From NCBI GenBank assembly GCA_965220085.1, contig CBDCOZ010000003.1:96001-160000 (forward strand): a stretch of 64,000 nucleotides of DNA. Direction: 5' to 3'. The DNA is from Candidatus Oxydemutatoraceae bacterium (GTDB taxonomy: Bacteria; Pseudomonadota; Gammaproteobacteria; Poriferisulfidales; Oxydemutatoraceae). This document shows, in pieces, positions 175-64,000 of this stretch. The position numbers and the translations under genes are program-made. The stretch's first letter is position 1, and every line of letters starts with the position of its first letter. The notes under the pieces were generated by a model that had not been told where the DNA came from, made no database searches, and saw nothing but the letters and a program-made list of their open reading frames with translations.

Positions 175-440
175 CGCCGACAGTGGGGATGTGTTTGAAC
201 CCTCATGGGATTCTGCTATTGCAAAGTGACGGCGCACACCCCCACGCTTTGCAACTAAAATTAGGAGGAAATATCACATGCAGTTTTTATCAGACCCACA
301 GGGTACACAAAACAACAATGCGGTTATGAAAATATCACATGCAGTCTTCACCGGACTCACAGGAGATCCTGGCAGTGTAGGATCATATTTATACCCCCCC
401 CCCCCCCCCCCCCCCCCTGCGCACATACGGGTGGGCAACG

Positions 441-3110
441 ATGACAGGGCGCGGTCTTTTTATGCTGGCACTGCTGGCTGTCTGCGCCCAAGCGCAGGCG
501 CAGGCCAACAATGCCGCCACTGGTAATATATCTGTCGCCTACGCCAGCGGCACTGTGCCCACCGAGGATGTGCCGATAACCGCATCTGCAAGCAACATAG
601 CCGATGACGATGGCGTGCCCGACCCGCTCAGCCTGAGCTGGCAATGGAGCCAGTCCAACGACAACGGCGTCACCTACGACGACATCACCGCCACCGCCGA
701 AAACGGCGCGAACACCGCCACCTTCACCCCCGACCAGCCTCAGTCGAACAGGCTTCTGCAGGTCTGCGCATCGTTCGCCGACAACGCAAACAACTCCGAG
801 AAGCTATGCCACCGGATAGCCACCAGGGTGGTCAATGTCAATGACCCGCCCGACAACCCCATGTTTACCGTTGGGGATCACTCAGACGGCCCTGCACTGA
901 CTGGCGCACCCGTAGAGGACACGTCCATAACACTGGGATCCCAAGGCGTAAACGATGCCGACGGCTTTAGTGATCTCAACCGTACCACATATATTTGGAG
1001 CGCCGATAATGGCGGCGACGGGGTATTCACTGAAATCAGCAGACGAACCCTGTCTTTTACACCCGGCCAGGAACATGTCGGCAGTGTCATCCGCTGCTGT
1101 CTCACCTATAGGGATGACTTTAATGTCAGGGAAAGTTTCTGCATCATGACCCCCGAGCCGGTGGTCAACGCCAACGATGCGCCGGTGGCGCAACGAAGCA
1201 GTGTCGCGGTGCGCACCGATGCCACTTCCGCCGAGCCATATACATTCAAGCCATCCGACTTTCGCTTCGCCGATGAGGATGGCGATGCGTTGGCGAACAT
1301 CCGCATAACCGGCCTGCCCACTGGCAACTCCCAGGGTGTTGGCACTCTGCTCCTGAATGGCACCGCCCTGACCAGCGGCAACCTGCCGGTCACCTTGACA
1401 GCGGATGAACTTGATGACGGCGACCTCACCTATTATCCGACAGCCGGCAATGCGGCGGTCACCACCAGCAACAGCTTGTCAGCTGGATTCTATGCCCAAT
1501 TCAGCTTCAAGGTGGAGGACGATGGCGACGATATCAGGCTGGATGGCAATGGCGAAGAGATCGAGGCCAACGTAAGCGCCAACATCGGCTCCATGAACAT
1601 CCGTTTGGCAGACACCAGCGAGCAGGTCCCCGCCGGCGGCGCGCCCGCCATCTCCCCCTCGGGCGACAGCCACCGTCAGCACACCGTGCTGACCGCCGCA
1701 TACACCGACGATACCAACTTTATAATATTTGACCGCAACGGCATAGACGAGGGCACAGTCAGGTGGCAGTGGCAACAAGCCGCTCCGGTCAATGACGCGG
1801 TCCCCGCCGAAGCCAGCAGCGCCTGGACCAACATAACCGGGGCCACCGATGCCGCCTTCGCCCTGACCCAGGCCCAGGTGGGCATGCATACCCGCGTCCG
1901 CATCACCTTTGCCGATGGCCTGGGCAATACCGAGGGCCCGTTCTATTCCGCCTCCATCACGACCACCGATGTCGCCGATGCGCCAGTGGCGCCGGGTAAC
2001 ACCATCCCGGTGGCCGCGGGCCGCAGTTATGCTTTCTCGGCGGCTGATTTTCCGTCTAGCGACGAGGACGGGGATGCCTTGGTTCACATGCGACTGAGAA
2101 GTCTGCCTGACAACGGTACGCTGTCTCTCCGCCGCCCCGCCACCGCTACTGCTTCAACTTTAACGAGCGTTCCTGTAGTAGCATTCACAAGGGAAGAATT
2201 TGAGCAACTCGGAGAAGAAGGAGGGATCGAGTTGGTCTATGCCCCTCCCGCGGCTGCCACCACGCCCACGGCGAACTATGACAGATTTACGTACAGCGTC
2301 CAAACTGGCACGGATGCGGCGCCGAGCAACGAGGCCGTCATCACCATAGCCCTGGTGTCGGCCATGCAATCAACGGCAACCGGCGCGCCGACGGTGACAG
2401 CGGTTGCCGGCGCCGCCTACGCCGAGGACACGGAATTGACCGCCTCCGTCGACGACATCAGCGATGACAACGGCATAGACCGCAGAACCCTGATGTGGCA
2501 GTGGCAATCTGCCGCCGCCCCCGCTAACGGCACCGCCCCGGCGGTCAGAGCCTACGGTGCCATCGCCGGAGCCACCGCCGCCGCCTTCACCCCGTTGCAA
2601 ACCCATGTGGGCAGATACATCCGCGTCTGCCTGACATTCACCGACGGCATAGGCGAGCGCGAGGACCCGCTCTGTTCCGACGGTGAGCGGGTTGCCAATG
2701 TCAACGATGCGCCGATGACCGAAGACAGCGAAGTGTCCGTGCCCACCATGACCACCGAGGAGATGCCCTATGCATTCAAGGCGAGCGACTTCCCGTTTGC
2801 CGACGAGGACACCGGTGACTCTCTGCAAGGTATCACCATCACCGATGCGCCGGACAAGGGCGCTTTGTTGGTAGGCGGCGAAGCGCTGTTGACATCCGGC
2901 TCGAGCAAAAACAACGTGGTGTCTGTGTCCGACATCTCCATGCTCGCTTACTACCCGGCGGCCGATGCGGAAGCGGGGCGAAACTATGACTCATTTGAAT
3001 TCACTGTCAGCGATGGCACGGAGAGCAGCGTCGCCGCGTCAATGAGCATACATCTGGGGGCCGACCTGCGCTTGCGGTTGCGCATCTTCTTGGAGGGGCC
3101 GCTGCGATAG
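441..3110 (+). CDS. Secreted Ig/cadherin-like repeat protein with C-terminal LRLRLRIFLEGPLR tag (889 aa ORF)
   Basis: Signal peptide ...LLAVCAQAQAQ. Alternating modules 'ATGAP...WQWQ...FTP.Q..VG..IRVC...CS' and 'VNDAP...FK.SDFPF.DEDGD.L...LTYYP...YDSF.F.V.D'. C24 tract at 394-417 lies between RBS-linked ATG 278 and ATG 441, which are out of frame by 1. Confidence 0.85.
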   Translation: MTGRGLFMLALLAVCAQAQAQANNAATGNISVAYASGTVPTEDVPITASASNIADDDGVPDPLSLSWQWSQSNDNGVTYDDITATAENGANTATFTPDQPQSNRLLQVCASFADNANNSEKLCHRIATRVVNVNDPPDNPMFTVGDHSDGPALTGAPVEDTSITLGSQGVNDADGFSDLNRTTYIWSADNGGDGVFTEISRRTLSFTPGQEHVGSVIRCCLTYRDDFNVRESFCIMTPEPVVNANDAPVAQRSSVAVRTDATSAEPYTFKPSDFRFADEDGDALANIRITGLPTGNSQGVGTLLLNGTALTSGNLPVTLTADELDDGDLTYYPTAGNAAVTTSNSLSAGFYAQFSFKVEDDGDDIRLDGNGEEIEANVSANIGSMNIRLADTSEQVPAGGAPAISPSGDSHRQHTVLTAAYTDDTNFIIFDRNGIDEGTVRWQWQQAAPVNDAVPAEASSAWTNITGATDAAFALTQAQVGMHTRVRITFADGLGNTEGPFYSASITTTDVADAPVAPGNTIPVAAGRSYAFSAADFPSSDEDGDALVHMRLRSLPDNGTLSLRRPATATASTLTSVPVVAFTREEFEQLGEEGGIELVYAPPAAATTPTANYDRFTYSVQTGTDAAPSNEAVITIALVSAMQSTATGAPTVTAVAGAAYAEDTELTASVDDISDDNGIDRRTLMWQWQSAAAPANGTAPAVRAYGAIAGATAAAFTPLQTHVGRYIRVCLTFTDGIGEREDPLCSDGERVANVNDAPMTEDSEVSVPTMTTEEMPYAFKASDFPFADEDTGDSLQGITITDAPDKGALLVGGEALLTSGSSKNNVVSVSDISMLAYYPAADAEAGRNYDSFEFTVSDGTESSVAASMSIHLGADLRLRLRIFLEGPLR

Positions 3111-3164
3111 CGCGAGCAATCCCATCGCAAGACTTGCGCTAACACGCTTCCTTGTGGCAAGCAA

Positions 3165-3222
3165 TACTCTCCCCTTGTGGGAGAGTCAGCGAGCTTCGCT
3201 CGCCGGAGAGGGGGAGAGTCGT
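3165..3222. repeat. REP-like palindromic element downstream of tagged genes (also about 6604-6650, 6770-6793, 9919-9940)
   Basis: Imperfect hairpin ACTCTCCCC-TTGT-GGGAGAGT plus GCGAG-CTTCG-CTCGC, repeated after three stop codons. Confidence 0.6.
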
Positions 3223-3401
3223 GGGGTGCGCACAAGGGGGTGCGCATACCTCACTAAAGGTAGGCCGCTGCGATAGCACGAGAGCCCTGCAGCGGAAAAG
3301 GGGAGTGTTGTGCGGTGCGCACGAGGGAGTGCGCCTACCCCCTTTGAGGTATGCCGCTACGGAGGTGTTGTGGAGTCGCACAAGAAGGCGAGACAGTAGA
3401 C

Positions 3402-3562
3402 TTGCAAATGATCGGCACTTTGTGGTAGAGTACATTAAATGAGGGAAACACTGAACAACTCAACTCTTGCAAAGGACTCGCACTTTGTGGTAGAGTACAT
3501 CAAATGAGGGAAACATTGAATAACTCAACTCTTGCAAAGGACTCGCACTTTGTGGTAGAGTA
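3402..3562 (+). promoter_or_regulatory. Three tandem 65-bp promoter-like units (TTGCAA-N18-TAGAGT)
   Basis: TTGCAA at 3402, 3467 and 3532, each followed by CACTTTGTGGTAGAGTAC. Confidence 0.65.
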
Positions 3563-3792
3563 CGCAGTACTAAGAGTGCTGGCACTCATTAGTACAATTT
3601 CGTTTGCTAGACAACTACGAGGAGTAAATACGATGAATCGACAATCTGCCAAAGGCACTTGCACAATGGCTCGCACTGATAGCAGAATAACTGCTACCAT
3701 AGACTGCTATAGGAGTAATACTATGAATAAACAAGTTTTTAATACTGCCCCCCCCCCCCCCCCCCCCCCTGCGCACATACGGGTGGGCAACG

Positions 3793-6396
3793 ATGACAGG
3801 CCGCGGTCTTTTTATGCTGGCACTGCTGACCGTCTGCGCCCAAGCGCAGGCACAGAACAATGCCGCCACCGGTAATATATCTGTCGCCTACGCCAGCGGC
3901 ACTGTGCCCACCGAGGATGTGCCGATAACCGCATCCGCGAGCAACATAGCCGACACCGATGGCGTGCCCGACCCGCTCAGCCTGAGCTGGCGATGGAAAC
4001 AGGTCCACCCCGTCAACAGCGCCATTACCGACATAGAGGGCGCCACCTCCGCCACTTTCACCCCCGACCAGCCCCAGGTGCGCTTTTTTCTGCGCGCCTG
4101 CGCATCGTTCACAGACAACGTCGGAAACAGCGAGGAGCTGTGCCACCAGATAGCCACCGCCGTGGCCAATGTCAATGACCCGCCCGCCCCCGTGCTTACC
4201 ATTGGAAGCGACCTGAACTCCCCTGAACTGACCGGCGCACCCAGAGAGGGCGCATCCTTAACACTGGCAGGCTCCAACATAAACGACCCCGACGGCGTCG
4301 ATGAGTTTTTCTCCCAATCCCTATGGATTTGGGACCAGGACGATGGCGGCAACGGGGTATTCGTCAATGTGCTCACATCGAGCAACGCCGCCGCATTCAC
4401 CCCGACTCAGGAACATGTCGGAAATCGCATCCGCGGCTGTATCAGGTACAGAGATGACTTTAGTGCCATGGAAAAGGCCTGCGTCACCACCCTGCCGGTG
4501 GTCAACGCCAACGATGCGCCGGTGGCGCAACTCGGCAGAGTGGCGGTGCCCGTCAACGCCACCTCCGCCGAGCCATATCCATTCAAGCCGACCGACTTCC
4601 CATTCACCGATGAGGATGGCGATGCGCTGGCGAAAGTCCAAATAACCGCACTGCCCACTGGCGGCGGCCAGGGTGGCGGCACTATGGCCAGGAATGGCGC
4701 CGCCCTGACCAGCGGCGACCTGCCGGTCACCCTGACAGTGGCGCAACTTGAGGCTGGCAACCTGACCTATTATCCGACTGCCAGCAATGCGGAGGTCACC
4801 ACCAGCAACAGATTGTCATCTGGATTCTATGCCCAATTCAGCTTCAAGGTGGAGGACGATGGCAGCGATGGCGAGGATGACAAAGTTAGCGTGGATGCCG
4901 CCACAATCAACATCCGCCTGGTATCCACCAGCCAGGCCGCCGCCGGAGGTGCGCCCGCCATCACCCCCTCGGGCGCCAGCCAACCCCAGCACACCGTGCT
5001 GACCGCCGCATACGATGACGGCACGAACTTTATAATATTTGACCGCAACGGCATAGACGAGGGCACAGTCAGGTGGCAGTGGCAGCAAGCCGCCCCGGTC
5101 GATGGCGCGGCCCCGCCGCCGACAAGCAGTGCCTGGACCAACATAACCGGGGCCACCGATGCCGCCTTCGCCCTGACCCAGGCCCAGGTGGGCATGCATA
5201 CCCGCGTCCGCATCACCTTTGCCGATGGCCTGGGCAATACCGAGGGCCCGCTCTATTCCGCCTCCATCACGACCGCCGATGTCGCCGATGCGCCGGTGGC
5301 GCCGGGCAATACCATCCCCGTGGCCGCGGGCCGCAGTTATGATTTCTCGGCGGATGATTTTCCGTTTAGCGACGAGGACGGGGATGCCTTGGTTCACATG
5401 CAATTAGTCAGTCTGCCTGACAACGGTACGCTGTCTCTCCGCCGCCCCGCCACTGCTACTGCCTCAACTTTAACGAGCGTTCCCGGAGCATTCACAAGGG
5501 ACGAATTGGAACAACTCGGAGAGGAAGGAGGGATCGAGTTGGTCTATGCCCCTCCCGCGGCTGCCACCACGCCCACGGCGAACTATGACAGATTTACGTA
5601 CAGCGTCCGAACCGGTACGGGCGCGGCGCAAAGGGATAGCAACGAGGCCGTCATCACCATAGACCTGGTACCGGCCACGCAATCAACAGCAACCGGCGCG
5701 CCGACGGTGACAGCGGTTGCCGGCGCCGCCTACGACGAGGACACGGAATTGACCGCCTCCGTCGACGGCATCAGCGATGGCAACGGCATAGACCGCAGAA
5801 CCCTGATGTGGCAGTGGCAACAGTCCGCCACTCAGGCCGGCACCTACGCCGACATCGCCGGGGCCGCCGCCGCAGCCTTCACCCCGTTGCAAGCCCATGT
5901 CAACCGATACATCCGCGTCTGCCTGACATTTGAAGATGGCATAGACACGACCGAGGGCCCGCTCTGTTCCGCTGGTGCGCGGGTTGCCAATGTCAACGAT
6001 GCGCCGACGACCAAAGACAGCGAAGTGTCCGTGCCCACCATGACCACCGAGGAGATGCCCCATGCATTTCAGAAGAGCGACTTCCCGTTTGCCGACGAGG
6101 ACGCCGACGACTCTCTGCGAAGTATCGCTATCACCAGCACGCCGACCGCAGGCATCTTGCGCGCGGGGACGACGAGAATCACCGCAAGCAATGTGCCATA
6201 CGAGGTAGAGGCAGACGACATCTCCATGCTCGCCTACTACCCGGCGGACGATGCGGAAGCGGGGCGAAACTATGACTCATTTGAATTCACTGTCAGCGAT
6301 GGCACGAAGAGCAGCGCCGCCGCGTCAATGAACATCCATCTGGGGGGCGACCTGCGCTTGCGGCTGCGCATCTTCCTGGAAGGGCCGTTGCGGTAA
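3793..6396 (+). CDS. Secreted Ig/cadherin-like repeat protein with LEGPLR tag (867 aa ORF), paralogue of 441-3110
   Basis: Same architecture as 441-3110. Probable true start is ATG 3723 (RBS AGGAGT, MNKQVFNT), separated by C22 (3748-3769) and out of frame by 1. Confidence 0.85.
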   Translation: MTGRGLFMLALLTVCAQAQAQNNAATGNISVAYASGTVPTEDVPITASASNIADTDGVPDPLSLSWRWKQVHPVNSAITDIEGATSATFTPDQPQVRFFLRACASFTDNVGNSEELCHQIATAVANVNDPPAPVLTIGSDLNSPELTGAPREGASLTLAGSNINDPDGVDEFFSQSLWIWDQDDGGNGVFVNVLTSSNAAAFTPTQEHVGNRIRGCIRYRDDFSAMEKACVTTLPVVNANDAPVAQLGRVAVPVNATSAEPYPFKPTDFPFTDEDGDALAKVQITALPTGGGQGGGTMARNGAALTSGDLPVTLTVAQLEAGNLTYYPTASNAEVTTSNRLSSGFYAQFSFKVEDDGSDGEDDKVSVDAATINIRLVSTSQAAAGGAPAITPSGASQPQHTVLTAAYDDGTNFIIFDRNGIDEGTVRWQWQQAAPVDGAAPPPTSSAWTNITGATDAAFALTQAQVGMHTRVRITFADGLGNTEGPLYSASITTADVADAPVAPGNTIPVAAGRSYDFSADDFPFSDEDGDALVHMQLVSLPDNGTLSLRRPATATASTLTSVPGAFTRDELEQLGEEGGIELVYAPPAAATTPTANYDRFTYSVRTGTGAAQRDSNEAVITIDLVPATQSTATGAPTVTAVAGAAYDEDTELTASVDGISDGNGIDRRTLMWQWQQSATQAGTYADIAGAAAAAFTPLQAHVNRYIRVCLTFEDGIDTTEGPLCSAGARVANVNDAPTTKDSEVSVPTMTTEEMPHAFQKSDFPFADEDADDSLRSIAITSTPTAGILRAGTTRITASNVPYEVEADDISMLAYYPADDAEAGRNYDSFEFTVSDGTKSSAAASMNIHLGGDLRLRLRIFLEGPLR

Positions 6397-6475
6397 TGGC
6401 AAACACACGCGCACAAGTGAGTATTGCCATTGAAGGCGGCGCCGATGGTCGGACTCAAGCCGGCGCGGCTTACGC

Positions 6476-6552
6476 CCGCGTCAATGAACATCCATCTGGG
6501 TGCCGATCTGCGCTTGCGCTTGCGCATCTTCCTGGAGGGGCCGTTGCGATAG
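6476..6552 (+). pseudogene. Orphan duplicate of the 3' tag region (MNIHLGADLRLRLRIFLEGPLR*)
   Basis: Near-copy of 6320-6396 located 156 bp downstream. Confidence 0.8.
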
Positions 6553-7113
6553 CGAGCAATCCATCGCAAGACTTGCGCTAACATGCTCCCTTGTGGCAAG
6601 CAATACTCTCCCCTTGTGGGAGAGTCAGCGAGCTTCGCTCGCTGGAGAGGGGGATAAACCACACTCCCTCTCGCACCATCCCCGAAGGCGAGACGGTAGG
6701 GAAGCAGCGATAGCAACGCCCGAACCTTTCCCCCTCACCGCATCGTCCTTCGCCTGCGGCTCGTCCTCTGCGACTCTCCCGCGAGGGGAGAGTCGTGGGG
6801 TGCGCACAAGGGAGTGACAGACAGACTTGCAAAGGACTTGTGCTTTGTGGTAGAGTAGAATACTAAGAGTACAGCACTCATTATTAAGAGTACGGTACTC
6901 ATTTATACGACTGCATTAATATGGCTACATTTACCAGACAAGACTAAACATCAGGAGGAAGACTATGATTTGTGATAGAGTGCATAGCATTAAGCGTACC
7001 AACACGCACCGTACAATCGTATTCACTAGACAAGCCATGAGGGGGGCCGCCATGAAGCAAAAAATATTTAATACCCCCCCCCCCCCCCCCCCCCCCTCGC
7101 ACTAGGGGTAGCG

Positions 7114-9864
7114 ATGATTCGGCGCTTCCTCTTGTTGCTGGTTCTGCTTGCCCTGTTTGCCGTCTACACCCAGGCCCAGGCCCGCACCGACCAGACAGCG
7201 GGTGACTTCGTAGCGCCGGTCGTCCCCCAGGCTGCGCCCATTGCCGTAGGCCCTTCGGCGCCCGTGGGGGCGCTGACCAGCGCCACCGCCGACAATCCGC
7301 ACTACTTCACGGCCAATGACTTCGGTTTTGTGGACTTCGACGGCGACCGTCTGCAAAGTGTGATCATAAAGACTCTGCCGAATCTTGGCACCCTGAGGGT
7401 AGGCGCCGCTAATGTTGTCATAGGCGCCAACAATACTGTGGCGATGATGGCCATCGCCACCCTGAACTATTACCCCCCATCGGGTCAGTCCCCGCAATCG
7501 AACTACGCCAGTTTCACCTTCAGTGTCACCGCCGGCGATGAGGAATCCAACATCGCCGCCGTCCGCATAGACCTGCGCGCAACCGCTCAGGTGGCCGCCA
7601 CCGGCATGCCCGACATAGCATCTGTGCGCTCCGGCCTGCTCAATGCCGCCCATTACGACAAGGACGAGGAGCTGTTTGGCCTGGCCATTTTCAACGGCAT
7701 CACCAACCTGCAAGTCCAACGCAGCTCAATCATCCAGAACGGCGGCGCGACCGCCTTTGCCTCCGCCGCCTTAGGCGCCATCAGCGACCACAACGGCATC
7801 GGCTCAAGCATCAGTTGGCAATGGCAACAGTCCGCTACCAGCGATGGCACATATGCGCCCGTCAGCGGTGCCAACCCAGTCAGAGTCACCACAACCATCA
7901 ACAGAATCACCCCGCGCCAGGCCCAGGTGGGCAAATACATCCGCGCCTGCGTCACCTTCAATGACCTCCACGCCACCTCCAACTCCGAGACGCTGTGTTC
8001 CGCCAGCGCCCGCATAGTGGATGGCGGCGAACGCCCTGCCGGCGGCGACAGCACCGTCAGTGTGCCGGACAACGCCAACGCCGCCAGCCCGCACCGCTTT
8101 GCCGCCGCCGACTTCCCCTTCAGCGATACGGGCGGCGATACCATCAACGGCATCCGCATAATATCCCTGCCCTCCAGGGGCACGCTGGCGGTGGCGGGCG
8201 ATACCAATGTCACCATAGCCGTCGGCACCGAACTCAGCCAGGCGCAGTTGAACGCCCTGGCCTACTACCCGGATGCCTACGCCAGCCCCGAGCCGGGCTA
8301 TGCCACCTTCACATACCGGGTACACGATAGCGGCAGCGATGACGCCACCAACACCGCCACCGGCGATTCCACCCTTACCATAGATCTGGCTCCCACCACC
8401 ACAGAACAGGTCGCCGCCAGCGGTCGCCCGGACTTTACCGGCGGCGCCACCCAGGGCCAGACCCTGAGCGCCGCCATCGGCACAGTGCGCGATGCCAACG
8501 GCATCAACCGGGATACCATCGCCTGGCAATGGTATCAAGCCCCCACCGATGCCGATGTTTTTCCCCCTACCGGCGACTTCGTCCCCATAGCGGATGCCGC
8601 AGAGGCCGAGCTTGTGCTCACCCAGGCCCAGGTGGGGCATCTTGTGCGCGTCTGCATCAGTTTCACCGACACCCACAGCGCCCCCAACCCCGAAGGCCCG
8701 CTCTGCTCCATCATCTTTTTCATACAGAACATCAACGATGCCCCCACCGGCGACGACACCATTGTGATGGTACCTGCCGCCGCCGCCGCCGCCAGCCCGC
8801 ACAACTTTGAGCGCGGCGATTTTCCATTCATGGATATAGATGGCGATGATCTGGCCGGCATCCGCATAGCCAGCCTGCCGACAGGCGGCACGCTGGTGGT
8901 GGCGGGCGATGCCAGTGTCACCATAGCCGTCGGCACCGACCTGACTCTGGCACATCTGGATGCTCTGGCCTGGTATCCCCATGACAACGCCACCCCAGGC
9001 AATGGCTACGACAGTTTCACCTACTGGGTGCGCGATGATATGGGCGGAAGCGCCTCCATCGCGCAGGACGCATCCACCCTCACGATAGATCTCATCAGCG
9101 CAACCCCGACCGCCGCCGGCGGTCAGCCCGCCATCAGCGGCGCCGCCACCCAGGGCCAAACCCTGAGCGCCGCCATCGGCACAGTGCGCGATGCCAACGG
9201 CCTGAACCCCGCGACCTTGCGTTGGCAATGGTATGCGGCCGCGCCGGACGACGGCTCGGCGCCGGCGGCGGACAGCAGCGCCTGGGCCGCCATAGCCGAT
9301 GCCACCGCCGCCGCCTTCATCCCGGCCCAGGCCCAGGTGGGCATGCACATCCGCGTCTGCGCATTCTTTATGGACAGCCACGCCACCAGCCCGGCAGCCG
9401 AAGGCGGCACCGTCGTCGCTCCCACGCTGTGCTCCGCAGCCAGTGCGCAGGTTGCCAATGTAAACGATGCGCCGATGACCGAAGACAGCGAAGTGTCCGT
9501 GCCCGCCACGGCCACTGCGATGATGCCCTATGCATTCAAGGCGAGCGACTTCCCCTTTGCCGATGAGGACGGTGACTCTCTGCAAAGTATCACCATCACC
9601 GGCATGCCGACCAAGGGCGCCTTGCGCGCGGGTACGACGATTATCACCGCAAGCAATGTGCCATACGAGGCAAGCGACATCCCCGAACTCAACTACTACC
9701 CGGAGGTGACCGAGACTGAAGTGGAAGCGGAGCGAAACTATGCCTCATTTCGATTCACTGTCAGCGATGGCATGGCGAGCAGTGCGCCTGCCACCATGAG
9801 CATACATCTGGGTGCCGACCTGCGCCTGCGCTTGCGCATCTTCCTTGAAGGGCCGCTGCGATAG
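7114..9864 (+). CDS. Secreted Ig/cadherin-like repeat protein with LEGPLR tag (916 aa ORF)
   Basis: Hydrophobic signal ending TQAQA, alternating repeat modules and the tag. Upstream ATG 7052 (MKQKIFNT) plus C23 (7074-7096) is out of frame. Confidence 0.85.
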   Translation: MIRRFLLLLVLLALFAVYTQAQARTDQTAGDFVAPVVPQAAPIAVGPSAPVGALTSATADNPHYFTANDFGFVDFDGDRLQSVIIKTLPNLGTLRVGAANVVIGANNTVAMMAIATLNYYPPSGQSPQSNYASFTFSVTAGDEESNIAAVRIDLRATAQVAATGMPDIASVRSGLLNAAHYDKDEELFGLAIFNGITNLQVQRSSIIQNGGATAFASAALGAISDHNGIGSSISWQWQQSATSDGTYAPVSGANPVRVTTTINRITPRQAQVGKYIRACVTFNDLHATSNSETLCSASARIVDGGERPAGGDSTVSVPDNANAASPHRFAAADFPFSDTGGDTINGIRIISLPSRGTLAVAGDTNVTIAVGTELSQAQLNALAYYPDAYASPEPGYATFTYRVHDSGSDDATNTATGDSTLTIDLAPTTTEQVAASGRPDFTGGATQGQTLSAAIGTVRDANGINRDTIAWQWYQAPTDADVFPPTGDFVPIADAAEAELVLTQAQVGHLVRVCISFTDTHSAPNPEGPLCSIIFFIQNINDAPTGDDTIVMVPAAAAAASPHNFERGDFPFMDIDGDDLAGIRIASLPTGGTLVVAGDASVTIAVGTDLTLAHLDALAWYPHDNATPGNGYDSFTYWVRDDMGGSASIAQDASTLTIDLISATPTAAGGQPAISGAATQGQTLSAAIGTVRDANGLNPATLRWQWYAAAPDDGSAPAADSSAWAAIADATAAAFIPAQAQVGMHIRVCAFFMDSHATSPAAEGGTVVAPTLCSAASAQVANVNDAPMTEDSEVSVPATATAMMPYAFKASDFPFADEDGDSLQSITITGMPTKGALRAGTTIITASNVPYEASDIPELNYYPEVTETEVEAERNYASFRFTVSDGMASSAPATMSIHLGADLRLRLRIFLEGPLR

Positions 9865-10209
9865 CGCGAGAACCCTCATCGCAAGACTTGCGCTAACACG
9901 CTTCCTTGTGGCAAGCAATACTCTCCCCTTGTGGGAGAGTTGGAAAGGATAAGCAACGCATACCGTCCGTACGGCGGACTTCGCCGACTCTCTCGCAAGC
10001 GAAGCGCCATGACGGCGCTCCGCAAATGCTTCTTTGCGCAGAAAAACCGCGGCGTGAATTGATGCGATTAGACCGTTCGTCAGACAATCTATGCCGCCTG
10101 TCCTATTCGGTTGGCTACAACTCCTAAAGCAGTGTTACTATCGGGCACAAGGCTGTTGACTATAGCCTTCGAGTTAGTGTTATTATCCAATGTGGAGGTG
10201 TAAATAATT

Positions 10210-11150
10210 ATGAAAAAAACTAAAGACTTAAAAGCAGAAGATACGGCGGGGGTTGCTTATGACCCCGTCGATAACTTGACCGGCGCGGGCTTTGACAAAC
10301 AGAAAGCAGACGCGATTGCCAACGAGCAACTTGCGCTGGTGCGCAGACATCTGCGCACTCTGCTAACCAGAGAAGAGTTTGCCAAGTTTGAAGCAGTGAC
10401 TCAAAAAGAATTTGACAAGTTTGAGTTAGCGCTCAAAGAAAACAGGGCTCAGTGGAAAGAAGAGTTAGACAAGTTTGAGTCAGCCATGAAAGAAGCGCTG
10501 ACCGGTTAGCGACGAAAGAAGAATTGGCCGCTCTTGAAGCAGCCATGAAAGAAGAGCTGACCAAGTTGAGAGAAGCGTTAGACAATCTGGCGACGAAAAA
10601 AGAGATTGCCGAGTTCAAGTCAGAGATCAAAGAACACATAAATCAGTTGGAAAAAGAGCTGACCAAGTTGAGCGAAGAATTGACCAATCTGACGACGAAG
10701 AAAGAGTTAGGCGAGTTCAGCTCAGAGATCAAAGAAAACATAGATCGGTTGGAAAAAGAATTGGCTCGGTTGAGAGAAAAGTTAATTCAGTTTGAATTGG
10801 CAATAAAAGAAGGCTTAGCCAAGTTCAAGTCAGAAACCCAAAAAGACATAGCGCAGTTGCAAAAAGAATTGGACGAGTTCAAGTCAGAAATCAAAAAAGA
10901 GATGAATCAGTTGAGAAGAGAGATAACTGAGTTGAGAAAAGAATTGACCAAGGTGAGAGAAGCGTTAACCGATCTGGCAACCAAAAAGGAGTTAGCCGAG
11001 TTCAGAAAAGACATGGAAAATATGGCAACCAAAAAAGATCTGGAAAATCTGGCGACTAAAGAAGACGTGGCTAAGGCGACAATAGGAATCATAAAGTGGC
11101 TTGTATTAACCGCACTTGCGTTAGCGGCTGCGATAGCCGCATTTATGTGA
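10210..11150 (+). pseudogene. DUF1640/CCDC90-like coiled-coil protein with C-terminal TM helix, split by a 1-nt frameshift at about 10505
   Basis: N-terminal 'AGFDKQKADAI', repeated 'LATKKEL.EF' motifs and C-terminal 'IIKWLVLTALALAAAIAAFM'. ORFs 10210-10509 and 10524-11150 join if one base is added at ACCGGTTAGCGACG. Confidence 0.7.
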
Positions 11151-11495
11151 CTCTTTGCTTAGGCCTGTGCCGTATCTTGTTCGCGCCGGCTGGGAGGGGC
11201 GCTTCAGAGACAGCGCTCCCTCTCGGGCGTAGCGTAGCCCCGCTGCCGCTCTCCTCTCGCGCCATCCTCGCAATCTCACCGAAGAAGGAGGTTACGCCGC
11301 GCCAAACCGCACAAGACGCAACTTGCGCCATCCCCGCAAGTGCGCCGAAGAGGGAGGCGTGTAGTGAGCGCAAGCGCGCAGCCCGCGCTTGGGGATAGTC
11401 TGCTATAATGCAGGCATTGCCAAAGATGTATGCGCTTGATTGCAGGGCGGGTGCGCGTATCTTATATAATGTGGGTTGCATGCGGAAACTTAATA

Positions 11496-13386: not shown

Positions 13387-13701
13387 CGCGAGTAACCGAC
13401 GGCAGAGAAGGAGAGCGTTGCGGGGTGCGCACAAGGGAGTGCGCATACCCCATTTGAGGTAGGCCGCTCCGTCGGTGTCATGGGGTTACACGAAGGTGAG
13501 ACAGTACACTTGCAAAGGACTCGCACTTTGTGGTAGAGTACGCAGTACTAAGAGTGCTCGCACTCATTAGTACAATTTCGTTTGCTAGACAACTATGAGG
13601 AGTAAATACGATGAATCGACAATCTGCCAAAGGCACTTGCACAATGGCTCGCACTGATAGCAGAATAACTGCTACCATAGACTGCTATTAGGAGTAATAC
13701 T

Positions 13702-53443: not shown

Positions 53444-54444
53444 CTATCGCAACGGGCCTTCAAGGAAGAGGCGCAGCCGCAAGCGCAGGCCCGCATTCGT
53501 CACACGGGCGCCGATGGAGCAGAGCGGCCCCTCCTGCACCGGGGTTGCGTGGCGGTCCATAAAGCGGACGCAGAAGCGCAGATATTGGCCCGCCAGGGCC
53601 TGGGTGGGCGTGAATGTGATGGCGGTCGCACTTGCTATGGCGGTGAATGTGCCATCGCTGGCGGAGGATGACTGCCATTCCCACCTCAGGGTTTCGCGGT
53701 TTATGTCGTTGGGTTCGACTATGCCGCTGGTGGTGGCGGTCAGCTGGGTGCCCACCATATAGGTGGGGTTTTCGGCGGTGATGAGCGGTTGCGTGGTGGG
53801 GTTGCCGCTGGCGGCGACCTGGGCCGGTGCCACCAGGCGGATGTTTAGTCTGACTGAGTTAATGCTGACGGTTTCGCCGCTGCCATCGTCCATTACTTTG
53901 AACCTGAAGTTGGTATACCTGAGAAGGGGATTGTCGGGGTCGGTGGGTTCCTGGCCCGGCTCCGGGTAATAGTTGAGAGTGGGTATGGTGCCCACAGTCA
54001 CCGTCTGCGGCACTGTGGATGAGGTGATGGCGGTGGCGTCCACCCGCAGGGTGCCGGCACTCGGCACACTTTCTATGATGACGGCGGTCAGACTGTCGCC
54101 ATCGGCATCGGTGAACGGAAAGTCGGCTGACTTGAAATAAAACGGGGTGTCGGCATCGGCATCGGTGCTCACAAGAACTGTGGTGCCGCCGGGATCCGGC
54201 CGGGCTTGGGCCCGGGTGACCGGGTCTGCATTGCTGTGCGGTTCGGTACTACGCGCTTGGGTCGCTACAACAACGAACAAACAGAGCAGGAGACCAGTCG
54301 TTATCCGATGGTTTCGGACGCGCGCACAGGGGGGGGGGGGGGGGGGGGGGTAGTATTAAAATCTTTTTGCTTCATGCTATATGCTTGCAAATACAATCGC
54401 TTCCTCCTGTTAGAGGGGGTAGTATTAAAAGTTCGTAGGTTCAT
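53444..54444 (-). CDS. Secreted cadherin/Ig-like tagged protein, out of frame at C22 (G22 at 54329-54350 on +)
   Basis: ATG 54444/54375 (MKQKDFNTT). The main frame has CARVRNHRITTGLLLCLFVVVATQA with no start before the h-region. Ends GLRLRLRLFLEGPLR. Confidence 0.8.
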
Positions 54445-54680: not shown

Positions 54681-55058
54681 TCCATAAACTGTTTGTGAAT
54701 TGTTTAGTGCTGTGTGCTCTGCCACAAAGTGCGAGTCATTTACAAAAGCTGAGTTGTGCATTGTTTCCCTCATTTAGTGTACTCTGCCACAAAGCTAAGT
54801 CATTTGCAAGTATCGGTATTTCCTTCTGTCTGGCGAATGTAATTTATAACGAGTGTCGTACTATACCACAGCGCAAGCCATTTGCAAGCGCCTTGTTGTC
54901 AAATATCGCCGACCACCTCCGGCGGGCGGTTGCGGCGGCGTTGCCGATGTGCTGATATTGCCTGCCGTGTGGATACAAGAAATCCATAGTGTTTCTGGCA
55001 TTATGCGCCTCACCTCCCTTGTGCGCCCATAACACTTCGTCTCTTGCGGGTACTCGCG

Positions 55059-56343
55059 CTATCGCAACGGGCCTTCCAGGAAGAGGCGCAGCCGCAAGCG
55101 CAGGCCCGCATTCGTCACACGGGCGGGGATGGAGCAGAGCGGCCCCTCTGACGCCGGGGTTGGGTGGCTGTCCATAAAGCGGACGCAGAAGCGCAGATAT
55201 TGGCCCGCCAAAGCCTGGGTGGGCGTGAATGTGATGTCGTCCGCACTTGCTATGGCGGTAAAAGTGCCCTCAGCAGTGGCCGATGACTGCCACTCCCACA
55301 TAAAGGTGTCGCGGTCTATGCCGTTGGGTTCTTCTATGCCGATGTTGGTGGCGGCCAGCTGGACACCCACTATATAAGCGGGGCTTTCGGCGGTGATGGC
55401 CGGGGTTGTGGTGGGGTTGCCAGTGGCGGCGGTCTGGACCAGTGCCATCACCTGAGCAGGGACGGAGCAGAGCGGCCCCTCTGACGCCGGGGTTGGGTGG
55501 CGGTCCATGAAGCGGACGCAGAAGCGCAGATATTGGCCCACCAGAGCCTGGGTGGGCGTGAATGTGATGGCGGTCGCGCCTGTTATGGCGGTGAATGTGC
55601 CGTCGCTGGTGGCGGATGACTGCCATTCCCACATCAGGGTGCTACGGTTTATGCCGTTGGGCTCGACTATGCGGTTGGTGGTGGCGGTCAGCCGGACACC
55701 CACCATATAAGCGGGGCTTTCGGCGGTGATGGCCGGGATTGTGGTGGGGTTGCCGGTGGCGGCGGTCTGGGCCGGCGCCACCAGGCGGATATTGATTTGC
55801 ACAGTGTTGGAGCTGACCGTTTCGCCGCTGCCATCGTCCTGTACCGAGAACCTCATTATGCCATAGTGCCCGGTGAAAGAGGGGTTGTCGGGGTCGCTGG
55901 GCTCCTGGCCCGGCTCCGGGTAATAGGTCAGGGCGCCGGCAGCCAGCTGGGCCACGGTTATGGGGTTTTCAGGCACGGCGGTCAGCGCTGTGCCGTTCAG
56001 CGACAGGGTGCCCCTCAGGGTGCTGGTGTTGCCCGATACATGCGGCAACGTTCTTATGATGACAGCGGCCAGCACATCGCCATCGGCATCGGTGAGCGGA
56101 AAGTCCGTGCCCTTGAATACATATGGGTTGGCGGCATCGGCGGCAGTGCTCACGAAGATCGCATTGGAGGATGCTATCGGCCGGGCTTGGGCCCGGGCGG
56201 TCGGGTCTGCGTTGCCGTGCGGTTGGGTATCGGCTTGGGCGAATAAGGCGAGCAGGCAGAGCAGGAGGCCGGTCGCTATCCTATGGTTTCGGACGCGCGC
56301 ACAGGGGGGGGGGGGGGGTAGTATTAAAAATCTGTCTATTCAT
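55059..56343 (-). CDS. Secreted cadherin/Ig-like tagged protein with duplicated Ig module, out of frame at C15 (56304-56318)
   Basis: RBS AGGAG; ATG 56343 (MNRQIFNTT); signal CARVRNHRIATGLLLCLLALFAQA in the main frame; ends in the tag. Confidence 0.8.
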
Positions 56344-56804: not shown

Positions 56805-57713
56805 CTATCGCAGAGGGCCTTCAAGGAAGAGGCGCAACCGCAAGCGCAGGTTCCCGCCACTAGCCACACGGGCGGGGACGGAGCAGAGCGGCCCCTCCTG
56901 CATCGGGGTTGGGTGGCGGTCCATAAAACTGACGCAGAAGCGCAGATATTGGCCCGCCAGGGCTTGGGTGGGCGTGAATGTGATGGCGGTCGCGCCTGTT
57001 ATGGCGGTGAATGTGCCGTCGTCGCTGGTGGCGGATGACCGCCATTCCCACATCAGGGTGTCGCGGTTTATGTTGTTGGGTTCGTCTATGCCGCTGGTGG
57101 TGGCGGTCAGCCGAGCGCCCACGATATAGGCGGGGTTTTCGGCGGTGATGAGCGGTTGCGTGGTGGGGTTGCCGCTGGCGGCGACCTGGGCCGGCGCCAC
57201 CAGGCGAATGTGCATATCGGCAGTGGCGGAGCTGATGGCGTTGTCGCTGCTATCGTCTGCCACCTTGAACCGAAATCCAGTGTAGCGGGCTTCGGTAGTA
57301 ATGTCGTCAGGATCACTGGGTTCCTGACCCGGCGCTGGGTAATAGGTCAGGGCGCCGGCAACCAGTTGAGCCGCGGTGATGGGGTTTTCAGGCACGGCGG
57401 TCAGCGCTGTGCCATCCAAGGCCATGGTGCCAGTGGATGGCAGCCTGCTTATGATGACACTGCCCAGCATATCGCCATCGTCGGCATCGCTGAACGGAAA
57501 GTCGGATACCTTGAACACAAATGGGGTATCGGCATCGGCGGCGGTGCTTACAAGAACTGTGTTGGAAGAGGTTAGCGGCCGGGCTTGGGCCCGGGCGGTC
57601 GGGTCTGCGTTGCTGTGCGGTTGGGCGCTGCGCGCTTGGGTCGCTACAACAACGAACAAGCAAAGCAGGCCGGCTGTTATCTGGCGGGCATGGGCGTTTT
57701 GGCGGTTTGACAT
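56805..57713 (-). CDS. Secreted cadherin/Ig-like tagged protein, no poly-C
   Basis: RBS AGGAG; MSNRQNAHARQITAGLLCLFVVVATQA; ends NLRLRLRLFLEGPLR. Confidence 0.85.
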   Translation of the reverse strand: MSNRQNAHARQITAGLLCLFVVVATQARSAQPHSNADPTARAQARPLTSSNTVLVSTAADADTPFVFKVSDFPFSDADDGDMLGSVIISRLPSTGTMALDGTALTAVPENPITAAQLVAGALTYYPAPGQEPSDPDDITTEARYTGFRFKVADDSSDNAISSATADMHIRLVAPAQVAASGNPTTQPLITAENPAYIVGARLTATTSGIDEPNNINRDTLMWEWRSSATSDDGTFTAITGATAITFTPTQALAGQYLRFCVSFMDRHPTPMQEGPLCSVPARVASGGNLRLRLRLFLEGPLR

Positions 57714-57732
57714 AGGGCTCCTGATGGCGGCG

Positions 57733-58209
57733 CTAGTAGGAGACGCCGGCTTGTTCCAGCATGTAGTCAACCGTCGCTTTTATCGCATCATCGGAGAGGT
57801 CGGCGCGTCCGGCTTTGGGCGGCATATTGCCGCGACCCGCTATCGCCGATTGGTACATCGCCTCGAGGTCGCGCTCTTTCATCCGCGCAAGCCACGCGGC
57901 TTTGTCGGTCAACTTGGGCGATTCCAGCACGCCGCTCAGGTGGCAGGCTTGGCAGACCGATTGATAGATCGCTTCCGGCGTCATGTCGGCTTTTGCCGTC
58001 GCTGTCGGAGTTTCCGTTACGGCGCCGACCTCTCCCACATTGACGCGGGAAATCGGTTTGATACGTTCTTTCGTCGCGTGCAACAGAGCGGCATCGGTTT
58101 CGCGATGGCTTTCGGATAACGCCGTTGCGATGATGAAAATGATGACCGCTATCAGAACGAGACCGGCCAATATGGCGCCGAAATAATTGAGAAATTCTTG
58201 ATCTTTCAT
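57733..58209 (-). CDS. Membrane-anchored cytochrome c5
   Basis: N-terminal TM helix, ERIKP, CQACH heme motif and MPPK axial Met. Confidence 0.9.
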   Translation of the reverse strand: MKDQEFLNYFGAILAGLVLIAVIIFIIATALSESHRETDAALLHATKERIKPISRVNVGEVGAVTETPTATAKADMTPEAIYQSVCQACHLSGVLESPKLTDKAAWLARMKERDLEAMYQSAIAGRGNMPPKAGRADLSDDAIKATVDYMLEQAGVSY

Positions 58210-61030: not shown

Positions 61031-61413
61031 TGAGCGTCGCCACCGAATACGATTTGATCATGCACATAGAAGGAAACATGTTGCTCTCTGAAATGGAGGA
61101 CTTCATCAACAACACGGCTTTGTGTCCGGATCTGTCCGCCGTGCCGGAGAACGCTTCCGGCGCGGTTGATTGTGCGAACCAATCCTGCAGCGAGTGGGAA
61201 TTTACGGCTTTTCAATTTGCGCTGTGGCAATGCCGGGTCGGGATGCGGTCCGAAGATGCGGCGGTTTGTGATGACGGCAAGTACCGCTTGCCGCGCAAGG
61301 CGAAGCTGTCCGTCAGCTCGGCAGGCGATCAGTTTACGCTTGAATTGGAATGGAGCGGCAGCGGCGGGCAGGTGAAGATATCGCGGACTATGCGCTCCCG
61401 TTGCGGTTCGTAA
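60938..61413 (+). CDS. Putative PilV-like minor pilin
   Basis: G|YLMMELLAAIAL..FG..G prepilin-like N-terminus and C....C...E.....W; follows fimT. Confidence 0.7.
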
Positions 61414-61550
61414 TCGGACAGGTCGCTTGCGGTGCGCCCGCGCACCGCTTAGCCCGCATCTATGTCGGCACACCCAATCGGTCAAACTTTTGCGGAGCTA
61501 AGCCGCGCAAGCCGTGCGCTTGCAGGGTGCCGGCAACTCAAGCAAAGCCT

Positions 61551-61595
61551 TGCAAGTTGCCGTTGCGCCTTTTCCCGGAAGGCCCGTTGCGGTAG
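61551..61595 (+). pseudogene. Degenerate orphan tag (KLPLRLFPEGPLR*) opening array 4
   Basis: The following ~330 bp are nearly identical to the sequence after 63202. Confidence 0.75.
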
Positions 61596-61819: not shown

Positions 61820-63202
61820 ATGAACAAACAAATTACTAATACCGCCCTTCAGAAAAGCGACCAAACGTGTCGCGCTCTTCTATGCAGAGCTATGAATAGA
61901 CAAATTATTAATATCACCCCCCCCCCCCCTACTGCGCTTAGAATTTGTGCGGCGGTAATACTCGCCTGCGCATTCGCAAACAGCGCGTACGCGCAAACCG
62001 AATGTGCGGCGGACAAGCCATTGATGAACGAAGGCGTGTGCGTTGCCAGTTGTCCGTCGGGACGGGAAGCTGTTCGCGGAACTTGCTACGCTGTCTGCGC
62101 AGCGGGGGAGACGCGAGTCACGCACCCGAACCGCGTCCCGGTTAACACCGGATGCTTTGCCGATGCCACGGCCAAAATGCTGAGCGATTGCGAAGCCGCG
62201 GGATGGGGGAGTCGGACGGCTATCTTGTTGGATTTCTTCCAACTCGGAACGGGCTGTCTGATTCCCTCAAGACAGGTGGGCCACGGGTCCTCGGATGCGT
62301 GCAACACCAATTTGGGAAGAGCTCCGTTCTGCACGGATGTGTACGGCGCCCCGCCGGTTTTTCCGAAAGCGGCGGACCATACCGATGTCACCGCCTCTTC
62401 CGGAAAAACCTTTGTCGCAAACTGCAACCGAGACGGGACTGTCCCCGGCGGTTATCCGCCGAACCACAACTTGAACGGCGAAACCGAATGCGCATGCAAT
62501 CGGGATTCGCACGTCGGCGACTGGCCGGACTGCGCGGCCTTTCCGGTCAGTCTGACGGCGGCGGATAGGGCGATGGCGCGGACATGTGTGGCGCGAGGGT
62601 GGAGTATTTCCACCGCCACCGCCGCCTCTATCAAATGCGAAGTTCCGCTGACCTCCGGCGAGGATACTTTTGACGGGTGCTTTCTCGGCGGTCAGGATTC
62701 GCCGCTGTGCGCGGATGTTTTTGGCGCGGGGTTCGCCCTGCCGGCAAGGGAGGTTCCGCAGTTGGTTTTGAATCTTGCCAACGCCTTTGACGCAAAGCTT
62801 AGCGCACAGCTTGGCGATGTTGTCAGAGCCGCCGCGCCGGTTTACGCGGAGGCGGTATGGGCGCGACACAACGGCGATCCGAATTATGCGGACGGCCCTA
62901 TCAACAACCACAACAGCAACAGCGATGCCGACAAAAGCAACATTGCCGTTCAGGTTGCGGCTCCGGTTTTCACGGCGCATGGAATTCCTTTTAACTGGGG
63001 GCTGGATGTCTCGCGGATTCCGGCTGCGATTCGGTTGGCGTACAGTCGTATTCCGGTGGCGGTGCCGTATGTTTTCAATTGCGGGGAGGGCATGTTTCCG
63101 ACAACGGTCAACACTTACGGCGCGACGGCATGCGCTGCCACCGACCCGCGCATGCGCTTGCGGCTACGGCTGCGCATCTTTCTGGAAGGCCCGCTGCGGT
63201 AG
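61820..63202 (+). CDS. Secreted Cys-rich tagged protein (460 aa), C13 in frame
   Basis: RBS AGGAGT; leader ...MNRQIINITPPPP; signal ending AYAQ; paralogue of 12139. Confidence 0.85.
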   Translation: MNKQITNTALQKSDQTCRALLCRAMNRQIINITPPPPTALRICAAVILACAFANSAYAQTECAADKPLMNEGVCVASCPSGREAVRGTCYAVCAAGETRVTHPNRVPVNTGCFADATAKMLSDCEAAGWGSRTAILLDFFQLGTGCLIPSRQVGHGSSDACNTNLGRAPFCTDVYGAPPVFPKAADHTDVTASSGKTFVANCNRDGTVPGGYPPNHNLNGETECACNRDSHVGDWPDCAAFPVSLTAADRAMARTCVARGWSISTATAASIKCEVPLTSGEDTFDGCFLGGQDSPLCADVFGAGFALPAREVPQLVLNLANAFDAKLSAQLGDVVRAAAPVYAEAVWARHNGDPNYADGPINNHNSNSDADKSNIAVQVAAPVFTAHGIPFNWGLDVSRIPAAIRLAYSRIPVAVPYVFNCGEGMFPTTVNTYGATACAATDPRMRLRLRLRIFLEGPLR

Positions 63203-63426
63203 CGCGAGCGCGAGCGCCCTGCGGCGGAGCAGGGGGTATTATGGGGCGCACACAAGGGGAGTGAGGCAAGATACAAAGGTGCTTGCGAATGATCGAATTT
63301 ATGGTATAGTGCGACATCCTATTGGCGCAAGTGCGCATGAAACTTGCGGATGACTGAATTTGTGATATAGTGCGAGACTCATAAGCAACCATATTCGCTG
63401 GCCACAAGCTATAAGGAGTAATAGAT

Positions 63427-64000
63427 ATGAACAAACAAATTACTAATACCGCCCTTCAGAAAAGCGACCAAACGTGTCGCGCTCTTCTATGCAGAGCTAT
63501 GAATAGACAAATTATTAATATCACCCCCCCCCCCCCCCCCCCTCCCCTCTGCGCTTAGAATTTGTGCGGCGGTAATACTCGCTTGCGCATTTGCAAACAG
63601 CGCGTACGCGCAAACCGAATGTGCGGCGGACAAGCCGCTGATGAACGAAGGCGTGTGCGTTGCCAGTTGTCCGTCGGGACGGGAAGCTGTTCGCGGAACT
63701 TGCTACGCTGTCTGCGCAGCAGGGGAGACGCGAGTCACGCACCCGAACCGCGTCCCGGTTAACACCGGTTGCTTTGCCAATGCCACGGTTAAAATTCTGA
63801 GGGACTGCGAAACCGCGGGATGGGAGAGTTGGGCGGACATCTTGTCGGATTTCTTTTCGTTGGGGGGAGGATGCCCGATTCCCTCAAATCATGTGGACCA
63901 CGCGTCCGCGAGTGCGTGCAGCACCGATTCGGGATTTGCTCCGTTCTGCACGGATGTGTACGGCGACCCGCCGGTCTTTCCGAAAGCGGCGGACCATCGC
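63427..64000 (+). CDS. Tandem paralogue of 61820, out of frame at C19 (63524-63542); runs off the window
   Basis: Near-identical to the 61820 copy up to about 63790, then diverges. The poly-C region is 10 nt longer, giving a stop at about 63555. Confidence 0.75.

Follow-up and report, generated by a model that had tools for sequence, protein, structure and literature searches.

The window analysed here is a stretch of 64 kb (C3:96001-160000; contig CBDCOZ010000003.1) from the three-contig, 2.49-Mb genome, rated 99% complete, of a Candidatus Oxydemutatoraceae bacterium. It carries twelve poly-C tracts, each close to the 5' end of a gene for a putative secreted protein. A preliminary description had listed these tracts with their coordinates and lengths and had proposed that they form a bank of about 12 phase-variation switches. 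A scan for homopolymers found every one of them exactly where it had been placed, ten as C runs and two as G runs on the forward strand. The G+C content of the window is 59.3%, the only other C or G runs of at least 7 nt are a C7 at 16273 and a G7 at 30675, and the longest A or T run does not exceed 8 nt.

The genes lie on the plus strand unless stated otherwise, and all bodies given below with a length in amino acids end in a common C-terminal tail. Five tracts fall within 13.4 kb at the left end of the window (394-13745). The first (C24, 394-417) belongs to a body frame at 381-3110 with an internal ATG at 441 and is out of frame as assembled. It is followed by a gene at 3723-6396 with leader ATG 3723 (MNKQVFNT), a C22 tract at 3748-3769, an internal ATG at 3793 and an 867-aa cadherin/Ig-like body, and by a gene at 7052-9864 with leader ATG 7052 (MKQKIFN), C23 at 7074-7096, an ATG at 7114 and a 916-aa Big_9 body; both are out of frame. 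The gene at 12139-13386 (leader ATG 12139, MKRKTFNT; C18 at 12164-12181) encodes a 415-aa cysteine-rich body and is in frame (ON), and its neighbour at 13702-14912 (leader ATG 13702, MNKQVFNT; C19 at 13727-13745; 388-aa body) is out of frame. Further along, a gene with He_PIG similarity at 29714-31112 has two leaders (29714 and 29789) and a C19 tract at 29814-29832, across which it is in frame. The gene at 31238-32140 has a collapsed tract of only seven C (31263-31269), and its leader, MNQKMINTTPP, continues in frame into the signal peptide. The longest run of the window, C28 at 32445-32472, lies in a gene at 32345-33395 with two leaders (32345 and 32420) and a 306-aa body, which is out of frame. 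On the minus strand, two genes are out of frame: one at 53444-54444 (double leader, ATG 54444; tract of 22 at 54329-54350; 294-aa body) and one at 55059-56343 (leader ATG 56343, MNRQIFNT; tract of 15 at 56304-56318; 414-aa body). The last two tracts belong to a gene at 61820-63202 (leaders 61820 and 61892; C13 at 61917-61929; 460-aa cysteine-rich body), which is in frame (ON), and to an out-of-frame gene with a double leader that starts at 63427, has a C19 tract at 63524-63542 and continues past the window end at 64000.

The preliminary description had placed an ATG about eight codons ahead of every tract but the first. Eleven of the twelve tracts do begin 22-25 nt past such an ATG; the leader consensus is M-N/K-x-Q/K-x-F/I-N-T, and a GGAG-type ribosome-binding site precedes several of the ATGs. 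The tract at 394 has another class of leader: it is reached by an open upstream frame with ATGs at 278 and 326, which lie 116 and 68 nt before the tract. In the genes 29714, 32345, 54444, 61820 and 63427 the leader is doubled: the first copy, which has a ribosome-binding site and a C-run that has collapsed, is joined in frame through about 15 linker codons to a second, which carries the long run. The leader may bear a likeness to the N-termini of autotransporters with an extended signal peptide region (ESPR); the Pfam search gave no match to the ESPR domain. At 3638-3700 and at 13617-13680 the decayed remains of a further leader copy (MNRQSAKGTCTMARTDSRI, ended by a stop codon) were also seen; this copy has a ribosome-binding site of its own, and the small upstream frame formed by it sits about 25 nt before the functional leader of 3723 and of 13702.

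On the 3' side of the run the order is an arginine-rich stretch, a hydrophobic core, an AQA-type motif and the body. Bodies contain Big_9, cadherin-like or He_PIG domains, or are cysteine-rich without a Pfam match; the Pfam matches of window proteins above cut-off were to Big_9 and He_PIG, with one to Cadherin_3. As had been claimed, the genes 13702, 32345, 54444 and 56343 have no start codon (ATG, GTG or TTG) between tract and hydrophobic core, and the same was found for the tracts at 12164, 61917 and 63524. A downstream ATG had been noted for 441, 3793 and 7114 and is present in all three.

The assignment of reading frames in the preliminary description, with 12139, 29714, 31238 and 61820 in frame and the other eight out, was borne out by our translations, with one qualification. 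Gene 29714 is in frame across its tract but broken further downstream, where the frame ends at 30736 without the family tail. The tail is found instead in the frame 30630-31112, and the 107-nt overlap of the two frames (30630-30736) contains the G7 at 30675-30681, which may mark either another slip site or a genuine break. When the window genes were translated in silico with successive tract lengths, one of three lengths gave the full protein and the other two gave peptides of 15-66 residues. The collapsed-tract gene 31238, as judged from its sequence, can be regarded as a fixed-ON reference copy.

Every intact gene of this family ends, immediately before the stop, in the tail ...LRLRLFLEGPLR, with the consensus ...LRLRL(R)(L/I)FLEGPLR; examples in the window are at 3066-3110, 13342-13386 and 32096-32140. 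Genome-wide the tail family comprises 186 open frames of at least 150 codons, together 488,673 nt or 19.6% of the genome, and 103 of the 186 are without a long tract. The DNA pattern of the tail had 214 occurrences here; one sister-genus genome had 16, three more genomes had one or two each, and the others searched had none. Among NCBIfam models no sorting-signal or family model matched above cut-off, nor did any Pfam model match the tail. Orphan frames of 24-83 codons containing little beyond the family tail were seen at 6421-6552, 11692-11790, 15626-15700 and 61344-61595. They lie after or between family genes and look like 3'-end remnants of recombination or duplication.

The concentration of long runs at these genes extends to the whole genome. 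There are 90 runs of C or G of at least 9 nt, compared with only two A or T runs of 9 nt and none longer. Of these 90 runs, 83 stand immediately before a family frame that is uninterrupted as far as the tail, and in all 83 the C is on the coding strand; five of the other seven are also at family-type leaders or before broken family genes. The figure of about 12 switches is therefore right for the window but describes a local share only: the genome has 83 tracts before intact genes and about five more. The 83 tracts are 9-28 nt long (mean 18.9, median 19), and their lengths are spread evenly modulo 3 (27, 25 and 31). Runs of at least 13 nt were observed 81 times where base composition would lead one to expect 0.22, and runs of at least 17 nt 66 times against an expectation of 0.0013. 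An ATG 16-49 nt upstream with a frame open to the tract was found in 63 of the 83 genes, in 27 of them at exactly 25 nt. By a simple hydrophobicity rule, 81 of the 83 have after the tract what looks like the n-region and hydrophobic core of a signal peptide, with an AQA motif.

Post-tract signal peptides of at least seven unrelated classes share one 25-nt leader, which suggests that leader and tract form a portable cassette. One subfamily (members include C3:688433, 695678, 735176, 739600, 1679360, 1684261 and 1702707) has a conserved stretch of about 60 residues (YVNKGIAG...RLLTRFLSP...) between tract and signal-peptide core; its pre-protein would have a very long N-terminal extension.

How these genes are translated can be judged from their paralogues. 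The preliminary description had argued, from 31238 only, that translation must cross the tract. A search of every frame ahead of the hydrophobic core of all family genes located the leader peptide in 62. Where the longest nearby C-run was shorter than 9 nt (3-7 C), the leader was in frame with, and open to, the signal peptide in 28 of 28 genes; where the run was of at least 9 nt, this was so in only 9 of 34 (Fisher p = 3.6e-10). The fusion of leader and signal peptide is thus the selected product, the frame being lost only at long runs, and the argument made from 31238 holds for all 28 collapsed-tract paralogues. Start codons between tract and core point in the same direction. Among the 83 genes 53 have none, 20 have an ATG, eight have only GTG or TTG, and in two no core was found; in the 53 that lack a start codon of their own, the protein can be made only as a fusion with the leader. 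Ribosomes that begin at the leader ATG have to translate the tract before they reach the signal peptide, and the frame in which they arrive depends on the length of the tract. The tract also lies ahead of the signal peptide, within the leader, which agrees with the earlier claim that a change of length would leave the mature protein unaltered.

Upstream of the leaders we observed a recurrent promoter-like module, TTGCRA-N11-13-TGTGGTAKAGT, with 10 matches in the window and none in 100 shuffles. Each match is upstream of a family gene and on the same strand. Three tandem copies, 65 bp apart, lie at 3402-3561; further plus-strand matches are at 6827, 11914, 13510, 29628, 32259 and 61676, and there is a minus-strand match at 54860-54887. 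Two copies of the module were seen upstream of 29714, of 32345 and of 61820. The distance from the end of the module to the leader ATG ranges from 59 to about 200 nt and is about 420 nt for the minus-strand gene. The position of the module suggests that the tract is transcribed and lies outside the promoter spacer. In promoter-spacer switches the homopolymer is located between -35 and -10 and alters the spacing of the two, as in the fim promoters of Bordetella. A switch of this kind was rejected for the genes studied here, since the tract follows the ribosome-binding site and the ATG and the module ends upstream of them. An attenuator made up of a leader peptide and a terminator requires a start codon that belongs to the downstream gene and a terminator placed between this gene and the leader frame; it does not fit the 53 genes without a post-tract start but may apply to the 20 that have an internal ATG. 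The terminator-like matches near the tracts have short stems of 5-7 pairs.

It might be expected that genes which are out of frame as assembled would show signs of decay. This is not what we found. All 83 genes, including those out of frame, run uninterrupted to the tail, and dN/dS ranged from 0.41 to 0.90 across eleven pairs of paralogues. In the pair 3793/441 both members are out of frame and yet both are intact over about 880 codons, with a dS of 0.23. The out-of-frame genes are thus not decaying; in permanently silent genes stop codons should have accumulated in the meantime. In six pairs of paralogues the flanks of the tract were at least 90% identical, and in four of the six the tract differed in length by 3-6 nt; for example, the gene at 63427 is a recent paralogue of that at 61820, with flanks that are 96.7% identical and a tract (C19 at 63524) 6 nt longer than its counterpart (C13 at 61917). 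By this comparison the length of the tract appears to change faster than its flanks.

The genes 441 and 3793 have kept an ATG at the start of the signal peptide, which shares bases with the stop codon TGA (ATGA). Of the two out-of-frame states, one has its leader frame ending at exactly that ATGA, 27 nt past the run, which could permit re-initiation; as assembled, the leader frame runs on in another frame for about 80 nt beyond the ATG. In 7114 the ATG lies 9 nt downstream of the leader stop. In the 20 of 83 genes with an internal ATG, these three included, the switch may be three-state, leaky or partial.

The most satisfactory explanation of these observations, and in our opinion a probable one, is that each tract acts as an independent, heritable and reversible ON/OFF contingency switch that works by slipped-strand mispairing and is contained in a shared 5' cassette. 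The architecture, as far as it can be read from the genome, matches that of a slipped-strand translational contingency locus whose products are of the secreted or surface type. Transcription would begin at the promoter-like module upstream of the leader ATG. Ribosomes would initiate at the Shine-Dalgarno sequence and ATG, read about eight leader codons and then translate the poly-C tract as a series of proline codons. With the correct length of leader and tract modulo 3 they would go on to translate a Sec signal peptide, with its n-region, hydrophobic core and AQA-type cleavage site, and after it a secreted Ig/cadherin-like or cysteine-rich protein with the family tail. With either of the two other length classes, translation would end after 15-66 residues. 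Slippage of the polymerase on 13-28 C during replication would change the length frequently and reversibly, so that some 83 genes would switch independently of each other while the mature protein stayed constant. Tract lengths would accordingly be expected to vary among cells, with a combinatorial display of the products.

Several points weigh against this reading. The distribution of frames is one of them: 15 of the 63 genes with an ATG 16-49 nt upstream are in frame and the two out-of-frame classes number 29 and 19, which is not different from one third (p = 0.14) and fits switching at the DNA level, slippage of RNA polymerase or ribosome, and miscalled lengths equally well. Runs with a mean length of 18.9 might slip in transcription and translation as well, which would blur the difference between ON and OFF. 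The signal peptides were called by a simple hydrophobicity rule and not by a trained predictor. A generic sigma-70 scan of positions 1-16000 gave 7 sites against 6.2 in shuffled sequence and missed the modules, so that the recurrent module is what carries the promoter reading. MutS and MutL are both intact and there is thus no general mutator background; a defect in mismatch repair was rejected as the cause of the tracts for this reason.

The sequence records were examined for variation as well. Three sequencing runs, all from one study and none of them an RNA run, were available. The Hi-C raw reads mapped only on poly-C runs, with depth 0 elsewhere, and had loose ends made up of C. This looks like a homopolymer read artefact, similar to the 'G's end' effect described in the accessible part of a study on Bifidobacterium breve (PMC9187656). 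The two runs of contig type (X1 and X2) were cut or masked at the tracts, with a single contig spanning the tract at 7074 free of gaps. In the protein collection 5 of 10 candidate start-to-stop translations were on record, and a search there for a second allele returned five clusters of one or two members, all of them from this genome's own contig. The pattern of leader plus tract had no matches in the collection of genome contigs from other species (genome_contigs), and its nine matches in metagenome_contigs were all in low-GC, unrelated sequence and attributable to chance. A homologue search with a 300-aa paralogue gave 49 matches, 43 of them from this genome; the other six were partial or had no leader.

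The first alternative to be considered is that the frame in the DNA is largely irrelevant, because RNA polymerase or the ribosome (at CCC codons) slips on the tract. Each gene would then give a mixture of frames, all copies would be expressed at a lower and noisy level, and the tract would be an expression damper or noise generator rather than a heritable switch. Slippage of tRNA-Pro into the +1 frame at CCC-C is established, and frames close to random at long tracts (15, 29 and 19 of 63; 9 of 34 in frame) as well as intact and constrained out-of-frame genes are what this model predicts. The slippage documented in bacteria concerns A/T runs and is less well established for C runs, which counts against it. 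Transcriptional slippage at bacterial A/T runs is itself on record (PMC1088944, in the part available). The genome encodes EF-P as well as TrmD, two factors that keep the ribosome in frame at proline codons, and the pilus genes of Bifidobacterium breve are described, in the text accessible to us, as a case in which the genotype of the G-tract determines expression (PMC9187656). Moreover, the model does not exclude slippage of the DNA, which the same runs must undergo too. We regard it as unlikely, though deserving of attention, that slippage in expression makes the DNA frame irrelevant.

Secondly, the tracts might be a neutral by-product: an expansion bias of C-runs would lengthen a tract inherited by duplication, and the out-of-frame copies would be decaying. 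The long tracts of related genomes (see below), which occur in varied places, some of them intergenic, and reach 39 and 70 nt, do suggest that C runs tend to expand throughout the lineage; the common position could be due to descent of the cassette from one ancestor, without selection at each locus; and a few tract genes are indeed broken (29714 in the window, and others without a tail). Against this, 83 of about 88 tract-bearing family genes are intact to the tail, pairs of out-of-frame genes are constrained with dN/dS below 1, 88 of the 90 runs of at least 9 nt are at family leaders and not scattered, and the 28 of 28 collapsed-tract copies in frame show that selection on the product continues. 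A purely neutral origin therefore seems quite improbable.

Finally, it is very improbable that the tracts are real but of stable, in-frame length (a fixed poly-proline spacer) and were miscalled in the consensus. In that case the in-frame class should still be the most numerous, but with 15 genes it is outnumbered by each of the others (29 and 19), so that more than two thirds of the tracts would have to be miscalled. Long homopolymers are difficult on every sequencing platform, and G-tract lengths in databases can differ from measured ones according to the available text of the B. breve study (PMC9187656); contigs of run X1 were cut at or near several tracts, and the loss of frame is confined to long runs, where errors would concentrate. 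Yet the lengths range from 9 to 28 nt without a preference modulo 3 (27, 25, 31), near-identical paralogues differ by 3-6 nt and not by 1, and frameshift-like junctions are no more frequent at short homopolymers of 7-8 nt (21 of 447) than at those of 6 nt (81 of 1877).

Long poly-C tracts are not restricted to this genome. Of 30 relatives examined, all from other genera of this family or order, 20 had C runs of at least 13 nt, and five closed genomes among the relatives had 8-45 such tracts each. Ten post-tract frames from relatives were compared with Pfam: four matched fn3, one Big_9/cadherin, one SWM_repeat and one DNA methylase-HNH, and three had no match. Frames of the fn3, Ig or cadherin type and DNA methylase-HNH frames are typical phase-variable gene classes. 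Some of the tracts in relatives are intergenic. The strict leader pattern was found in none of the 30 relatives. As judged from these comparisons, long poly-C tracts are a habit of the lineage, and the family with leader, tract and tail is an expansion of this genus. Very long C runs, of 70 and 39 nt, were seen in the relatives at L026 (G008:C1:1320196-1323209) and L015/L020 (G022). In another genome of the same order (locus L004, G019:C1:9128-12141) ATATATGGTG leads into a C16 run, after which comes a 483-aa frame whose N6_N4_Mtase domain (E = 6e-36) is fused to HNH; this frame is a candidate phase-variable DNA methyltransferase.

Repeats in or near signal-peptide coding regions are known from Neisseria, where pilC has a poly-G tract in this region and the number of opa copies per genome ranges from 3-4 to 11. 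Like the genes described here, the opa genes contain their repeat, the pentamer CTCTT, in the part encoding the cleaved signal peptide, and the family switches copy by copy, as summarised in the accessible part of bioRxiv 10.1101/2020.09.16.300947. The opa repeat is located inside the hydrophobic core, whereas the homopolymer of our family lies ahead of the n-region and is found in 83 copies. A second parallel is the sialidase gene nanH3 of Gardnerella, which has a poly-C tract near its 5' end and encodes a secreted, cell-bound protein; according to the same part of that preprint, in-frame lengths give the full protein and other lengths peptides of about 40 residues, and annotation pipelines lose the N-terminus (bioRxiv 10.1101/2020.09.16.300947). 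As described there, nanH3 is a single gene with C8-14, its tract comes just after the signal peptide and its OFF forms keep the signal. In the present family the tract is ahead of the whole signal peptide, and OFF products would consequently carry the leader only and no export signal.

The closest likeness is to the sortase-dependent pilus genes of B. breve UCC2003, which switch by replication slippage at a G-tract and in which the variation was measured by maximum-depth sequencing (PMC9187656). As far as the available text of that study goes, in both cases a G/C tract parts the Sec signal from the remainder of a surface protein, the downstream part has no start of its own, so that the fusion is or is not made according to tract length, and the organism is a host-associated non-pathogen, presumably so in our case (PMC9187656). 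The differences lie in number, length and position. B. breve has two such loci with tracts of about 10-12 nt and the present genome 83 loci with tracts of 9-28 nt, lengths that are known from the assembly alone; and the tract of B. breve follows the part with the Sec signal, while ours comes before the whole signal peptide, about eight codons past the ATG. With regard to number of loci, 115 predicted phase-variable genes, counting all repeat types, are reported for Neisseria meningitidis in the accessible text of PMC5084427. Both N. meningitidis and Campylobacter resemble our organism in having many simple-repeat loci in a small genome, with surface structures enriched among them and, in Campylobacter, G/C homopolymers (PMC5084427, PMC8355987; accessible parts). 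In these pathogens, as described there, the loci are many unrelated genes with several types of repeat; in our uncultured organism almost every locus is a member of a single paralogous family, whose genes have the leader cassette and the tail in common. The mechanism is thus known in kind; its scale, its organisation as a cassette and the organism are new.

Our literature search found no paper on phase variation in sponge symbionts, and a term search of the main paper on one sponge-symbiont order returned no mention of homopolymers or phase variation. Phase variation at simple repeats is textbook knowledge for a few pathogens and is hardly documented in uncultured symbionts. If the contingency-switch explanation is true, a fifth of the coding capacity of a 2.5-Mb genome is a repertoire of which each cell displays a random subset; strong fluctuating selection by the host, by phages or by neighbouring cells would be indicated, and the organism would be a tractable model of bet-hedging in symbiosis. 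It is tempting to go further and to see in the leader and poly-C tract a portable cassette that turns about 83 independent genes into the stochastic coat of a host-associated non-pathogen, a randomiser acting on three levels (runs of 13-28 C should slip in replication, transcription and translation alike, so that heritable switching and non-heritable leakiness may occur together in place of a clean binary switch), and even a general, as yet undescribed strategy of animal-associated uncultured bacteria; this wider view is put forward tentatively, and we think it rather doubtful that it will hold in full. There is also a practical side to the tracts. Gene callers truncate tract genes or label them as broken, and polishing tools may 'repair' the tracts, so that secretomes from metagenome-assembled genomes would be underestimated. 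Single long reads over the five tracts that lie within 13.4 kb of the window could phase ON/OFF combinations cell by cell.

Two further members of the tail family in the window are without a leader tract. One lies on the plus strand at 28630-29508. The other, at 56805-57779 on the minus strand, is a paralogue of both minus-strand tract genes and has a short leader, MSNRQNA, that passes into the signal peptide without interruption. The housekeeping part of the window contains two sets of tandem repeats, at 18050-19032 (unit about 325 bp, 96% identity) and at 19710-20363 (unit about 92 bp, 92-94% identity).

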